16,344 nucleotides of DNA, from the NCBI RefSeq assembly GCF_029504745.1, contig NZ_JAQFIQ010000050.1, forward strand, positions 1 through 16,344, written 5' to 3'. The notes under the pieces were generated by a model that was not told the DNA's origin, searched no databases, and saw nothing but the letters and a program-made list of their open reading frames with translations. Below, in pieces: positions 3,116-7,628 of this stretch (position 1 is the first letter of the stretch; every line of letters starts with the position of its first letter). Source of the stretch: Breznakia sp. PF5-3. GTDB taxonomy: Bacteria; Bacillota_I; Bacilli_A; Erysipelotrichales; Erysipelotrichaceae. The translations under genes and the position numbers were made by a program.

Positions 3116-3730
3116 CTAAAATTCAATTTTACAAGATACCACCCTACCAATGATAGAAACAGGTAATTCATTTACTTCTTGAGCTGTGAAATAACGATTT
3201 TCATAATCTGGATTCGTTGCTTCTAAAATAAGTAAATTCTTTTCTTTGATTACTTTTTTGATAGTTGCTTCATCACCATTGATTACAACAACAGCAATAT
3301 CTCCAGAGTTTACATCAGATTGTGCTTTAACATAAACCTTACTACCATCAAAAATATGTGAGCCAATCATAGAGTCTCCTTTGACTTGAAGGAAGTAATC
3401 ACCTTTGTTTACGTCGGAATCACTTACTTCTTCATAACCTAGTAGTTGCTCATTTGCAATCAAATCATAGCCTGCCTTAACGAAGCCTAATACCGGCTTC
3501 ATTTTTTTTGAATGTTCTTTGGAGTCTTGATTATCCCAGCTGATTAAGGTCATGGGATCAATTTCTAAGATGGTTGCTAATTTTAAAATTTTGTCATTTT
3601 TAATATTTTTTATTTCACCAGTTTCCCAACGGGTAACCGTTGGCATACTTACACCAACATACTTTGCCACTTGCTCAGTTGTCAGTTTTAATGATTTTCT
3701 TTTTCTTCGAATATATTCATTCATTTGCAT
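3116..3730 (-). CDS. XRE-family HTH / S24 peptidase (LexA/CI-like) autocleavable repressor
   Basis: N-terminal XRE HTH: LKLTTEQVAKYVGVSMPTVTRWETGE. LexA-like cleavage-site context: PVLGFVKAGYDLIA (Ala86-Gly87). Catalytic Ser in VKGDSM (Ser120) and Lys in EATIKKV (Lys158), giving LexA-like Ser-Lys spacing. RBS GAGGTGA precedes the ATG at 3730. Confidence 0.85.
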   Translation of the reverse strand: MQMNEYIRRKRKSLKLTTEQVAKYVGVSMPTVTRWETGEIKNIKNDKILKLATILEIDPMTLISWDNQDSKEHSKKMKPVLGFVKAGYDLIANEQLLGYEEVSDSDVNKGDYFLQVKGDSMIGSHIFDGSKVYVKAQSDVNSGDIAVVVINGDEATIKKVIKEKNLLILEATNPDYENRYFTAQEVNELPVSIIGRVVSCKIEF

Positions 3731-3747
3731 AAAATCACCTCATAATT

Positions 3748-3776
3748 ATTATAAGCAAATAAGTACATAAATGCAA
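3748..3776 (-). promoter_or_regulatory. Candidate sigma-A promoter of the repressor gene
   Basis: On the minus strand: TTGCAT (complement of 3771-3776), 17 nt, TATAAT (complement of 3748-3753). It is overlapped by a degenerate copy of the operator (AAGTACATAAATGCAATT, 3761-3778) and by the tandem 8-mer ATGCAATT x2 (3771-3786). Confidence 0.45.
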
Positions 3777-3815
3777 TTATGCAATTAAATAAAAAGAATA
3801 AATTACGTTTTTGTA

Positions 3816-3843
3816 TTGTAATTACGTAACTTTCTAGTATAAT
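3816..3843 (+). promoter_or_regulatory. Candidate sigma-A promoter of the radical SAM operon
   Basis: TTGTAA (3816-3821), 16 nt, TATAAT (3838-3843). The spacer contains the palindromic octamer TTACGTAA (3822-3829). Confidence 0.5.
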
Positions 3844-3853
3844 TAAACTATAA

Positions 3854-5155: not shown

Positions 5156-5898
5156 ATTGTACTTATTTGTATGATGGTTCACTTGAAGGGATATTGAGTG
5201 TTGTGTATACATGTTTAAAAGATAAGCAAATCCCAAATATGGTTATAGAAGAAGAGAACTATGTTGGAAATTTATTTGAACAACCTAAAATGATTTCTAC
5301 AAATCTCGATCATTCTTCTTATATTCTCGAACAAATTCAAGAGAAGGTTTCAGATTTGGCTTTGTATTATGTATATACTTCATTTCTATCAAGTGACAAA
5401 AAGAAAGCCAATGCGCTTCTTCATTACATAATTTATGCTTTTAAATATGGATTTAAAATAAATCAAATGAAAAGTATAGATTGTGTCATTGAAGTACAAC
5501 GAATTGCTAAGAATGTGAAATACGAAGCTCATCGATTTTCAGGCTTTATAAGATTTAAGGAATTAGAAAATAAGTTTTTATATGCTGAGTATGAATCTGA
5601 TAATGATATTTTAACGTTCTTGGCAGATCATTTCAGTGATCGATTGCAACAAGAGATATGGATGATTCATGATAAGACGAGGTTTCAAATTGCTTTATAC
5701 AATCGTGATGAATATATTATTGTAGATTCTAAAACAATTGATTTGACAATAATTGAAAGTGATCAAGAGGATTATTATCTACAATTATGGAAAGACTATT
5801 TTAAAAACATAACGATTAAAGAAAGAGAAAACAGGCGTTGTCAGCGAAGTTTTATGCCAAAAAAATATTGGAAATATTTACCAGAAACAAAAGGATAA
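5134..5898 (+). CDS. DUF4130 / TIGR03915-family putative DNA metabolism protein (obligate partner of the radical SAM protein)
   Basis: N-terminal YLYDGSLEGILSVVY and C-terminal RRCQRSFMPKKYWKYLPE signatures are typical of the family. It overlaps the upstream gene by 22 nt (5134-5155), suggesting translational coupling. A TTG at 5167 is an alternative start. Confidence 0.8.
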   Translation: MHHWTVIDCTYLYDGSLEGILSVVYTCLKDKQIPNMVIEEENYVGNLFEQPKMISTNLDHSSYILEQIQEKVSDLALYYVYTSFLSSDKKKANALLHYIIYAFKYGFKINQMKSIDCVIEVQRIAKNVKYEAHRFSGFIRFKELENKFLYAEYESDNDILTFLADHFSDRLQQEIWMIHDKTRFQIALYNRDEYIIVDSKTIDLTIIESDQEDYYLQLWKDYFKNITIKERENRRCQRSFMPKKYWKYLPETKG

Positions 5899-5921
5899 TA
5901 ATGAAATAAAGGAGTTAAGAT

Positions 5922-7562
5922 ATGAAGAAAAGAATATTATCAAGTGACGAAGCAAGAGCCTCTCTTGTCAATGGAGTAAATCAGCTAGCAGATACAATCA
6001 AAGCTACCTTAGGACCAAAAGGTAGAAATGTTGTAATTGCAAATGAATATACAGGGCCATATATTACAAATGATGGTGCAACAATAGCTAGAGAATTTAT
6101 ATTAGAAGAACCATTTGAAAATGTTGGTGTCGATTTAGTAAAAGAAGTGGCATTGAAAACAAATGATTTAGCAGGCGATGGAACAACAACGGCGGTTTTG
6201 TTGGCACAAAAAATGATAAATGAGGGACTTAAGTATATTCGTGATGGATATAATCCGATGCTTTTGAAGAATAGTATTCAAAAAGCTGTAGATCTAGCAG
6301 TGAAGCATTTGTTTCAATCCACACAAAAAATAGTGATTCCATTACAGGTAAGGGATATTGCTACGATTTCTTCAGGTGAGCCAGCAATAGGTGAAATTAT
6401 TGCCGAAGCAATTGAGAAAATTGGTGATAATGCGCTTATTTCAATAGAGGAATCAAAATCAACAGCAACAAAATTGGAGATTGTTAAGGGATATAAAATG
6501 GATGAGGGATATGTTTCAGCATATATGACAAATGATCAAGTTAAAATGTGTGCAAATTTAAAAAATCCTTATGTTTTAATTACAGATGAAAAGATTACTG
6601 CTATTGAACAGATTTCTAATATCCTTGAGAAGTTGATTGAAATAAATGCTGATCTTGTTTTAATATCAGATACTATTCGTGAAGATGTTCTCTCTACTTT
6701 GATTTTAAATAAGGTTCAAGGAATTTTGAATGTTGTAGCAATTAAAGCGCCATCAACGCACGAACATCGGAAAGAAATATTAGAAGATATTGCAGTTGTT
6801 ACAGGAGGGAATGTGATTTGTAAGGAGTTAGGATATACCCTTGAAAACGTAGAGATTAATGATCTTGGAAGAGCAGGACAAATAAGTGTTGAAAAAGAAT
6901 CGACAATGATTATTGAAGGATTTTCAAATCAAGCATTATTTAATCAAAGGTATGAACAAATTCAAAATCTTATTCATGAATCTACTACAGAGTTTGAAAA
7001 AGAACGTTTGGAATTGCGATTGGCAAATCTTTCAGAATCGGCAGCGATTTTAAAGGTTGGTGCAATGAGCGAATTAGAGATGAAAGAGAAAAAAATGAAG
7101 ATTGAAGATGCACTTTGCGCTGTCAGAGTTGCGATGAAAGAAGGTATTTTACCAGGCGGAGGATTGGCGTATTTTAATACAGCAAAATATTTGGAATCAT
7201 TTTCTAAGGAAATGATAGAAGATACAGTTGGGTTTCGCATTGTAATTGATAGTTTAAAAGAACCAGTTAAGCAACTCTTAATGAATGCTGGAGTTGAAGA
7301 TGTGACAGAGCGATTAAAGAAACTTGAAACAGCGGATGCAGTAAGTGCATACGACATTCATTCTTTAACGTTAGTGGATATGTTTGAAGCTGGAATTATT
7401 GATCCTAGCACAGTAGAGCGAGTGGCGTTGCAATCCGCTTCTAGTATTGCTTCACTTATTTTAACAACCGAAAGTATCCTCGTGGATACTTCGATGGAAA
7501 GTATTATAAAAAAAGAATTGAATGATCAAGTAATTCAAGATAGCAATGCGGGATTATATTGA
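5922..7562 (+). CDS. Divergent GroEL/Cpn60-family chaperonin paralog (orphan, no adjacent groES)
   Basis: 546 aa, collinear with GroEL. Matching segments: [28 protein letters not shown] (ATP site), [36 protein letters not shown] and IIDPSTV. It ends ...QDSNAGLY rather than in a GGM repeat. AAGGAG RBS; only 23 nt separate it from the DUF4130 stop. Confidence 0.9.
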
Positions 7563-7587
7563 TTTAAAGAAAAATATAACATAAAAA

Positions 7588-7628
7588 ACAAAGTAAAAAT
7601 AACCTTCAATTTTACTTTGTTTTTGTTT
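7588..7628 (+). terminator. Intrinsic terminator of the radical SAM/DUF4130/chaperonin operon
   Basis: ACAAAGTAAAA (7588-7598), 11-nt loop, TTTTACTTTGT (7610-7620), followed by TTTTGTTT. The stem is AT-rich but has 11 perfect base pairs. Confidence 0.6.

Follow-up and report, generated by a model that had tools for sequence, protein, structure and literature searches.

Pairs of a radical SAM protein of the TIGR03916 family and a TIGR03915/DUF4130 partner are among the most widespread SOS-regulated systems of uncharacterized chemistry, and their SOS regulation in several phyla is already known. LexA control of CAC3343-3344 in Clostridium acetobutylicum has been predicted (footprinting and expression prediction; PMC3828012), SOS-regulated COG1573-COG4277 pairs are reported from Verrucomicrobia, Alphaproteobacteria, and Bacteroidetes (PMC8565304), and the pair lies within the UV-responsive DdaA regulon of Acinetobacter (PMC12392091). 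Its gene neighborhoods have been analyzed by Aravind and colleagues (PMC3765255), and an AlphaFold 3 model presents it as a tight complex in which DUF4130 is the nucleic-acid-binding module (2026 preprint, bioRxiv 10.64898/2026.08.19.745780). Likewise already known is the replacement of LexA by XRE/CI-type S24 repressors, as in HdiR and in Bacteroidetes, and XRE-type S24 SOS repressors have been described (PMC8565304). Here, we analyze a 16,344-nucleotide stretch of Breznakia sp. PF5-3 (contig NZ_JAQFIQ010000050.1, positions 1 to 16,344; hereinafter the window), in which an XRE-S24 repressor gene is divergent from a radical SAM gene, a DUF4130 gene, and a third cistron coding for a paralog of GroEL. 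We consider it moderately probable that this module is an SOS-type DNA-damage-inducible operon with its regulator alongside, in which the chaperonin paralog serves the Fe-S radical SAM-DUF4130 pair.

Set against the described SOS operons of radical SAM and DUF4130/uracil-DNA glycosylase (UDG) proteins (PMC8565304, PMC3828012, PMC12392091, PMC3765255), the window holds the same two families, adjacent to each other and behind predicted damage-responsive operators, which in Firmicutes relatives are LexA boxes. However, its DUF4130 protein stands alone, without a UDG domain, its operator is not a LexA box, and its third cistron, the GroEL paralog, figures in none of those reports. The repressor has the same phage-CI-like combination of an XRE helix-turn-helix (HTH) and an S24 domain with Ala-Gly, Ser, and Lys residues as HdiR of Lactococcus and Streptococcus and the noncanonical LexA of Bacteroidetes (PMC8565304). 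It is also placed in the same way, divergent from an SOS effector cassette, with palindromes predicted at both promoters that would include an autoregulatory one, and thus has the makeup of an HdiR-like/CI-like repressor of the COG2932 type with intact cleavage residues. HdiR pairs with umuC, and Erysipelotrichaceae homologs of the window repressor likewise pair with a Y-family polymerase and YolD. In contrast to HdiR, the window repressor comes from Erysipelotrichales, for which we found no paper naming such a repressor as an SOS regulator; its predicted operator is different (TTRCRT-N2-AYGYAA or long-spaced half-sites), and its target is a radical SAM repair operon rather than a mutagenic polymerase. 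With canonical LexA it shares the C-terminal S24 autoprotease (Ala-Gly and a Ser/Lys dyad) and the predicted regulatory logic, but its N terminus is an HTH_3/XRE domain and not the winged-helix LexA_DNA_bind, and it scores 76.2 bits on the LexA equivalog model TIGR00498 (cutoff, 110.95), with residues 72 to 199 alone aligning onto LexA residues 73 to 197. The canonical LexA box GAAC-N4-GTTC (Cheo) was found neither in the window nor in Breznakia.

A GroEL paralog as the conserved third cistron

A scan of 185,579 species genomes recovered 80 loci with a homolog of the radical SAM protein. The GroEL-like gene directly follows that for DUF4130 in 26 of these and in five further contigs reached via protein matches, and all carriers of this triad are Erysipelotrichales, RF39-type bacteria, or unclassified "Bacilli"/Mycoplasmatota metagenome-assembled genomes (MAGs). 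The junction between the DUF4130 and GroEL-like genes measures 23 nt at most, and a 4-nt overlap (ATGA) joins the two genes in many loci of the RF39 type. Across the triads, the identity of the GroEL-like protein to the window copy drops from 75% to about 26%, with the radical SAM protein staying at 60% or above, and scores on the GroEL equivalog model range from about 583 down to 258 bits (258 to 350 in RF39-type copies). All 200 neighbor-joining bootstraps group the triad copies in a single clade separate from housekeeping GroELs, in a tree whose housekeeping GroELs come from outside Bacilli/Erysipelotrichales. The recruitment of a chaperonin, which an original prediction made from the letters of the window had proposed, is thus supported and extended: in about 30 genomes or contigs, the GroEL-like gene is kept as a monophyletic third component, with neither CIRCE nor groES nearby. 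The neighborhood survey of radical SAM-DUF4130 pairs which that prediction had called for finds the three-gene arrangement conserved in related genomes, with an adjacent divergent XRE-S24 gene only in a Breznakia-like sublineage.

In sequence, the triad copies are far removed from housekeeping GroELs (27 to 46% identity, against an average of 69% for housekeeping copies among themselves). The window copy, a fast-evolving one, reaches at most 45 to 48% with housekeeping GroELs, and the housekeeping protein P0050 matches thousands of proteins at 61 to 65%; a search seeded with P0050 recovered Clostridia-type housekeeping GroELs only, and the contexts of P0092 and P0050 are unrelated assemblies. 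The window protein passes the subfamily models NF000592 and NF009487 but remains below the cutoff of the equivalog TIGR02348 (568.0 versus 582.1 bits). Comparison with E. coli GroEL, in which the motif positions were checked, shows that the ATP-binding and hydrolysis residues (GDGTTT, D52, D398, G414/G416, and D495) do not vary among the 31 sequences of triad-linked copies and paralogs, a fully conserved site that they share with housekeeping GroEL in the Cpn60 family. On the other hand, R197, invariant in housekeeping GroELs, is lost in all triad-linked copies (E in the window copy), and the inter-ring contacts have changed at A109, E434, R452, S463, and V464 (to D at 109, K at 452, and E at 464). 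The Gly-Met (GGM) tail has given way to a clade-specific conserved tail, DxSxESIIKKxLNxQLIxDSxxGLY, or in RF39 types to short N/K/E-rich tails; the window copy accordingly has none of the housekeeping traits of a Gly-Met tail, an R197-E386 salt bridge, and conserved inter-ring contacts. The hydrophobic substrate-binding residues of the apical domain are mostly kept in Erysipelotrichales copies and eroded in RF39 types, which points to a narrowed client range in the latter. The GroEL-like genes are under purifying selection (dN/dS of 0.04 to 0.27, compared with 0.06 to 0.21 for DUF4130 and 0.03 to 0.08 for the radical SAM gene).

The regulatory surroundings of the gene have changed as well. No groES/Cpn10 gene was found at any triad locus, against three of three canonical loci examined (L083, L094, and L095), and even at a tolerance of 4 mismatches no triad locus showed a CIRCE element, which L083 has in perfect form and L094 with a single mismatch. 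Of 21 RF39-type triads, 19 have a relaxed LexA box instead, at a fixed distance of -54 to -59 (background, 10%), and the Erysipelotrichales triads have TTRCRT-N2-AYGYAA palindromes in front in place of LexA boxes. The GroEL-like gene has, in short, switched from heat-shock (HrcA-CIRCE) to SOS-type operators and stands, in the window, in the operon of its presumed clients behind a predicted SOS-type promoter.

Specialized GroEL paralogs are familiar from rhizobia (copies coregulated with nif/nod), mycobacteria (GroEL1), chlamydiae (GroEL2/3), and phage EL (gp146), and they share duplication, a non-GGM tail, an altered ring or cochaperonin dependence, and a narrowed, pathway-specific role. None of these is known to lie within an operon for SOS functions or DNA repair, or to be linked to a radical SAM enzyme. 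The window copy stays well below the cutoff of the chlamydial models (228 bits for GroEL3 and 138 for GroEL2; cutoff, 600). Our literature search found no paper tying a chaperonin to the radical SAM-DUF4130 operon or the SOS regulon in this manner, and the GroEL-like third cistron appears to be a new, undescribed element.

Several loci call for separate mention. A 774-aa protein (P0019) that was considered as a DUF4130-GroEL fusion was rejected: it is a housekeeping GroEL that contains an internal duplication and is preceded by Cpn10. In the complete MAG chromosome L033 (8197-10238), the DUF4130 and GroEL-like genes are both fragmented and the radical SAM gene is largely intact, and the GroEL-like gene is split into two open reading frames (ORFs) in L006 (9271-10883) and L018 (2109-3622); joint decay or assembly error could account for these broken genes. 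L006, L007, and L026 bear the MAG labels Muribaculaceae or Bacteroides, with radical SAM proteins 64 to 72% identical to that of Breznakia. They are probably misbinned Bacilli contigs; L006 and L007 carry a Bacilli-type triad, and the L026 contig ends before a triad could be visible.

The radical SAM-DUF4130 pair and its SOS control

The radical SAM protein of the window scores above the TIGR03916 cutoff, with the CX3CX2C motif at C64-x3-C68-x2-C71 and a C-terminal HhH domain (HHH_3 match, residues 313 to 355). C64, C68, and C71, together with C20, C43, and C52, are invariant in 80 of 80 homologs (C20 to C71 are encoded in the 3887-4100 region of the window), and C367 is present in 75%. The invariance of C20/C43/C52 beside CX3CX2C suggests an auxiliary Fe-S cluster; in the consulted portions of the literature on the pair, we found no mention of these cysteines. 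The DUF4130 protein is likewise above the TIGR03915 cutoff and is encoded directly after the TIGR03916 gene. A single-sequence search located a DUF4130 ORF downstream of the radical SAM gene in 72 of the 80 loci, immediately adjacent in nearly all, and the 22-nt overlap between the two genes that had been noted in the window is indeed there and is kept in all eight Erysipelotrichales loci examined. Sequence searches for solved structures related to either protein returned nothing significant. Among the radical SAM-DUF4130 loci lacking the triad, no conserved third gene was found, except for a UDG-superfamily gene in Anaerococcus.

A perfect GAAC-N4-GTTC box occurs within 150 bp upstream of the radical SAM gene in 9 of 78 loci (0.06% of control windows; shuffles average 0.1) and a box with at most one mismatch in 34 of 78 (3.1% of control windows; shuffles average 2.7). 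This enrichment at orthologous operons and the published SOS regulons (PMC3828012, PMC8565304, PMC12392091) support the proposal that the module is DNA damage inducible. The original prediction, which has the pair annotated for putative repair and nothing else, is out of date on this point, since it omits these published SOS links. Upstream of the radical SAM gene of the Holdemania triad (L005, ~6700-6900), there is a tandem duplication of roughly 95 bp, and the upstream region of that gene has no recognizable LexA-type or TTRCRT-type operator.

The repressor, its predicted operators, and its scope

The self-cleavage apparatus described earlier for the repressor is borne out: Ala86-Gly87 (VKAG/Y), Ser120 (GDSM), and Lys158 (ATIKK) are invariant in a 13-member family alignment. 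NCBI names the protein "repressor LexA / LexA family protein." It belongs to a tight ortholog group at 75 to 87% identity (16 further clusters), beyond which lies a wider family at ~50% identity of ~195-aa XRE-S24 proteins across Erysipelotrichaceae, called "LexA family protein" by NCBI.

The shared intergenic region between the repressor gene and the operon spans 156 bp, and the promoters and operators that we place in it (Table 1) are predictions from sequence. The operon promoter is conserved in alignments of orthologous loci, the -10 element of the repressor promoter is invariant across four of them, and all of the control elements keep their positions in the orthologous regions of L003 (B. 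pachnodae) and the metagenomic relatives L084 and L086. The bracketing half-sites lie in a 30-bp block that is identical in the window, L003, and L084. The predicted operator O2, which overlies the repressor's own promoter, would provide autoregulation. The leader predicted from that promoter is very short, and a promoter scan gave an alternative minus-strand promoter at 3865-3836. In 1.16 Mb of scanned sequence, the degenerate 14-bp operator pattern was found at these control regions and at one stray site only, with no further site in the 16-kb window. L086 has TTGCGT-AA-ACGCAA at the position of O1 and, in all half-sites, G where the window has A. We withdrew a reading of this switch as operator-repressor coevolution, the recognition helix being identical in the window and L086 and the window O2 mixing both variants; for the same reasons, the half-site position is taken as degenerate (TTRCRT).

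How far the repressor reaches beyond the module bears on the claims that it is "dedicated" and the cassette "self-contained." It might be a local regulator of this cassette alone, as HdiR is at the adjacent cassette in Streptococcus uberis, and several observations are in keeping with that. The Breznakia-like sublineage (the window, L003, L084/85, and L086) keeps the repressor gene next to and divergent from the operon, the ortholog group is tight, three operator elements crowd the shared intergenic region, the window has no other operator site, and Clostridia have independently put an XRE-S24 gene ahead of the radical SAM gene. In the last case (L062, L064, L066, L072, and L074, ~6260-6990), the XRE-S24 gene is codirectional with the radical SAM gene, overlaps its start, and is ~30% identical to the window repressor; this is an independent fusion of the same regulator type into the front of the operon. 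However, the Erysipelotrichales triads L004, L087, and L089 have no adjacent repressor gene, yet TTGCAT-TT-ACGCAA abuts their -10 element, which implies a homolog acting in trans. Moreover, the ~50% homologs pair with other SOS modules. In Dielma and the most widespread subtype (P0189), the homolog is transcribed away from a Y-family polymerase that is accompanied by YolD or a small ORF, and in Erysipelothrix and L096 it is divergent from a conserved 79- to 84-aa ORF, with GTTGCGT-N14-ACGCAAC operators at its own promoter that use the same TTGCGT half-site. The lack of other sites also counts for less, in that the operator scan of this genome covers 16 kb. We therefore regard exclusive control of this cassette as a tentative reading that is probably wrong: the regulatory link and the damage-sensing logic are well supported and exclusivity is not supported, and the repressor looks like a member of an HdiR-like SOS repressor family able to act in trans, which probably acts at sites beyond its own operon too.

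The 79- to 84-aa family (L093 4621-4875, L096 3633-3872, and L090 3359-3607, all on the minus strand), whose partner is the XRE-S24 repressor family, has no Pfam match. It has the consensus ...KKYIxVV.H....GE.MPL.I......Y.I.RVLQIKK.AS.VGG.G..Y.C.I.......LFYER.RWFIES...; its gene stands by itself, divergent from that of the repressor, in Erysipelothrix-type loci, and in Dielma it follows the Y-family polymerase gene. The family may be an unrecognized SOS effector or YolD-like factor.

Proposed mechanism and alternative explanations

The mechanism that we favor would run as follows. In an undamaged cell, dimers of the XRE-S24 repressor would occupy the TTRCRT-N2-AYGYAA palindromes, with repression exerted from the site between the operon -10 element and the ribosome-binding site (RBS), from the half-sites around the -35 element, and from a third site over the repressor's own -35 element. 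Upon DNA damage, RecA filaments on single-stranded DNA would stimulate cleavage at Ala86-Gly87 by the Ser120/Lys158 dyad, and this self-cleavage would release both promoters. The operon would then supply a radical SAM enzyme carrying two clusters and an HhH domain for DNA binding, its obligate DUF4130 partner as a nucleic-acid-binding subunit (the pair presumably carrying out radical-based processing of DNA lesions), and a GroEL paralog standing outside the GroES-linked heat-shock circuit. The last would most likely be an ATP-driven chaperonin for folding, cofactor loading, or assembly of the cotranslated and suddenly produced radical SAM-DUF4130 complex. Damage induction through RecA-stimulated self-cleavage, the binding of the repressor to the palindromes, and the role of the chaperonin are what we infer from the sequence data.

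A chaperonin dedicated to these clients is favored because the pair is a multicluster Fe-S enzyme produced abruptly, because the genes are translationally coupled, because the apical surface is remodeled and not lost, and because E. coli Pol V depends on GroE: GroE stabilizes UmuC, and both Pol V and Pol IV are GroE dependent, which sets a precedent for the chaperonin dependence of an SOS function (PMC6590174). Some points weigh against this reading. As the window has no canonical LexA box, the case for SOS control here is made by the S24 apparatus and by comparison to orthologs, and the promoters and operators of this organism are predicted ones. The proposed relation between chaperonin and client derives from linkage, coupling, and coinheritance, and the correlation of the distance matrices of the three triad genes (r = 0.92 to 0.95) is equally expected from shared vertical descent alone. 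The branches of the GroEL-like copies are long, so that long-branch attraction could inflate their monophyly in a tree without the Bacilli/Erysipelotrichales housekeeping copies. There may also be an internal promoter for the GroEL-like gene within the 3' end of DUF4130.

Other roles for the GroEL-like protein are less likely than that of a client-dedicated chaperonin. The same dependence of Pol V and Pol IV on GroE could be taken to mean that it is a general chaperonin of the SOS phase, serving several damage-induced proteins such as Y-family polymerases and placed in this operon for coregulation alone, and the Erysipelotrichales copies do retain most of the apical substrate-binding residues. 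We consider this unlikely, given that in all ~30 loci the gene is strictly linked to radical SAM-DUF4130 and to no other SOS gene, that ATGA couples its translation to that of DUF4130, and that the apical residues are eroded in the RF39-type copies. The ring might alternatively be no folding helper but a stoichiometric, ATP-driven subunit of the repair machine: a remodeled, possibly single ring that works with the radical SAM and DUF4130 proteins on damaged DNA or protein-DNA adducts or presents the substrate. An invariant ATPase site with remodeled cochaperonin and ring interfaces, an evolutionary rate similar to that of DUF4130 (the presumed specificity subunit), the stoichiometric style of translational coupling, and the association of mycobacterial GroEL1 with the nucleoid would all fit. 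Against this stand the operation of the pair without a GroEL-like gene in 54 of 80 loci, the failure to detect any DNA-binding motif or extra domain in the GroEL-like protein, and the lack of fusions with the radical SAM or DUF4130 protein, the lone candidate P0019 being a housekeeping GroEL; we accordingly hold a subunit role to be quite unlikely.

It is very unlikely that the gene is simply the housekeeping chaperonin of the organism that has come to lie downstream of repair genes by chance. Such an assignment could draw on the GroEL subfamily models that it passes, on the NCBI label "chaperonin GroEL," and on the presence of a single groEL in the 16 kb of this genome that were covered, but it is at odds with the subequivalog score, the low identity to the nearest housekeeping GroELs, the missing groES and CIRCE, the lost R197 and GGM tail, and a position that is conserved over deep divergence and behind LexA boxes. 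Least probable of all, the module could be what is left of a prophage or mobile element, or it could be an antiphage defense system with a CI-like, infection-sensing repressor. The best PHROG match of the repressor is, to be sure, the phage transcriptional repressor family phrog_4 (E 5e-36), a fragment of an IS256 transposase lies 2.2 kb away, and phage-encoded GroELs exist (phrog_5725). Against it, PADLOC gave no match for the radical SAM, DUF4130, and GroEL-like proteins and a weak generic HTH match for the repressor only, 2.9 million viral contigs contained no close relative of the radical SAM protein, the flanks are ordinary chromosomal ones in five contexts, and the G+C content of the module (0.30 to 0.34) is inside the range of the rest of the window. 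Conservation of the block in varied nonphage contexts thus supports the earlier view that this is not a prophage remnant, and we return to the reading of an SOS-type operon with a client-dedicated chaperonin as the one to be preferred.

Module anatomy and genomic context

An ORF check of the window confirmed the positions previously given for the four genes, the divergence of the repressor from three tightly packed genes, and the 23-nt gap before the GroEL-like gene with its own RBS (AAAGGAG ahead of the ATG). The terminator that had been placed at 7588-7628 also proved sound, and domain searches of the window proteins agreed that no phage or integrative and conjugative element genes flank the module; its earlier description was accurate in every detail. 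The coordinates are compiled in Table 1.

Table 1. Genes and predicted control elements of the module (window positions)
Feature	Position	Strand	Remarks
XRE(HTH_3)-Peptidase_S24 repressor gene	3116-3730	-	204 aa; HTH_3 E 9e-11, Peptidase_S24 E 1e-23
Radical SAM gene, TIGR03916/COG4277	3887-5155	+	646.7 bits (cutoff 343.5)
DUF4130/TIGR03915 partner gene	5134-5898	+	243.5 bits (cutoff 112.25)
Divergent GroEL paralog (Cpn60) gene	5922-7562	+	546 aa; passes NF000592; 568.0 bits (GroEL equivalog cutoff 582.1)
Operon promoter	3816-3843	+	Predicted; TTGTAA, 16-nt spacer, TATAAT; sigma-70 type, 10/12 matches
Operator O1, between operon -10 and RBS	3857-3870 (extended palindrome 3854-3873)	.	Predicted; GTACGT-AA-ACGTAC
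Inverted half-sites bracketing operon -35 hexamer	3803-3829	.	Predicted; TTACGT-N15-ACGTAA
Operator O2, overlapping -35 and spacer of repressor promoter	3763-3776	.	Predicted; GTACATAAATGCAA; position kept in L003, L084, L085, L086
Putative repressor promoter	3748-3776	-	-10 TATAAT (reverse complement of 3748-3753), 17-nt spacer, -35 TTGCAT (reverse complement of 3771-3776)
Bidirectional terminator-like hairpin ending the repressor gene, between it and the convergent MerR-type gene	3080-3099	.	8-bp stem, T-run on both strands
Intrinsic terminator at operon end	7584-7631	+	Hairpin ~7584-7624 plus U-tract UUUUUGUUU; -12.3 kcal/mol, z = -3.9

The four-gene block of repressor and triad recurs in L003, L084/85, and L086 with entirely different flanking genes each time; differing from one another and from the window in their flanks, these loci indicate that the four genes move as a block. 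In the window, the upstream neighbors are the IS256 transposase fragment, HAD_SAK_2, a PRD protein, and the MerR regulator, and an ECF sigma factor gene lies downstream. The IS256-family transposase (16-870, plus strand), the 5' part of which lies beyond the end of the window and contig, is the sole mobile-element gene. The 224-aa PRD-domain protein (1494-2168, minus strand) matches the LicT/BglG antiterminator profile at positions 70 to 272 only; the RNA-binding (CAT) domain of the N terminus is missing, and the gene is probably truncated. A 424-bp AT-rich stretch (7629-8052), the end of which is clipped by one 61-aa minus-strand ORF, separates the operon terminator from the sigma factor gene; Rfam and tRNA scans had no match in the whole window, this stretch included. 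Beyond it, on the plus strand (8053-15048), follow an ECF-type sigma factor with sigma domains in its first ~190 residues and a ~240-aa C-terminal extension, a 363-aa protein for which no Pfam hit is recorded, and a 1,515-aa GH32 (fructosidase-type) protein with Big_2 domains. These three genes may form a sigma-controlled polysaccharide utilization unit.

Implications

Of the three ideas in the original prediction, two (that the pair is under SOS control and that an XRE-S24 protein takes the place of LexA) were already known in kind, and the third, the recruited chaperonin, is now much stronger than a single window could make it and appears to be undescribed. Here, a chaperonin that is universally conserved and belongs to the heat-shock response has been duplicated, cut off from its GroES linkage and CIRCE, and moved into what would be a DNA damage regulon, an event of which we found no report in the literature. 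That one lineage couples the radical SAM-DUF4130 pair obligatorily to a chaperonin of its own suggests that the complex is hard to fold or to load with cofactors, and coexpression of the cognate GroEL paralog is therefore a practical route to its reconstitution. Were the ring instead a subunit of the repair machine, it would be the first case of a chaperonin fold within a DNA repair enzyme. The XRE-S24 "LexA family" proteins of Erysipelotrichales are likely a third substitution of LexA, after those in Streptococcaceae (HdiR) and Bacteroidetes, and a phage-type S24 repressor running SOS functions would bear on mutagenesis and drug-induced stress responses in gut bacteria.

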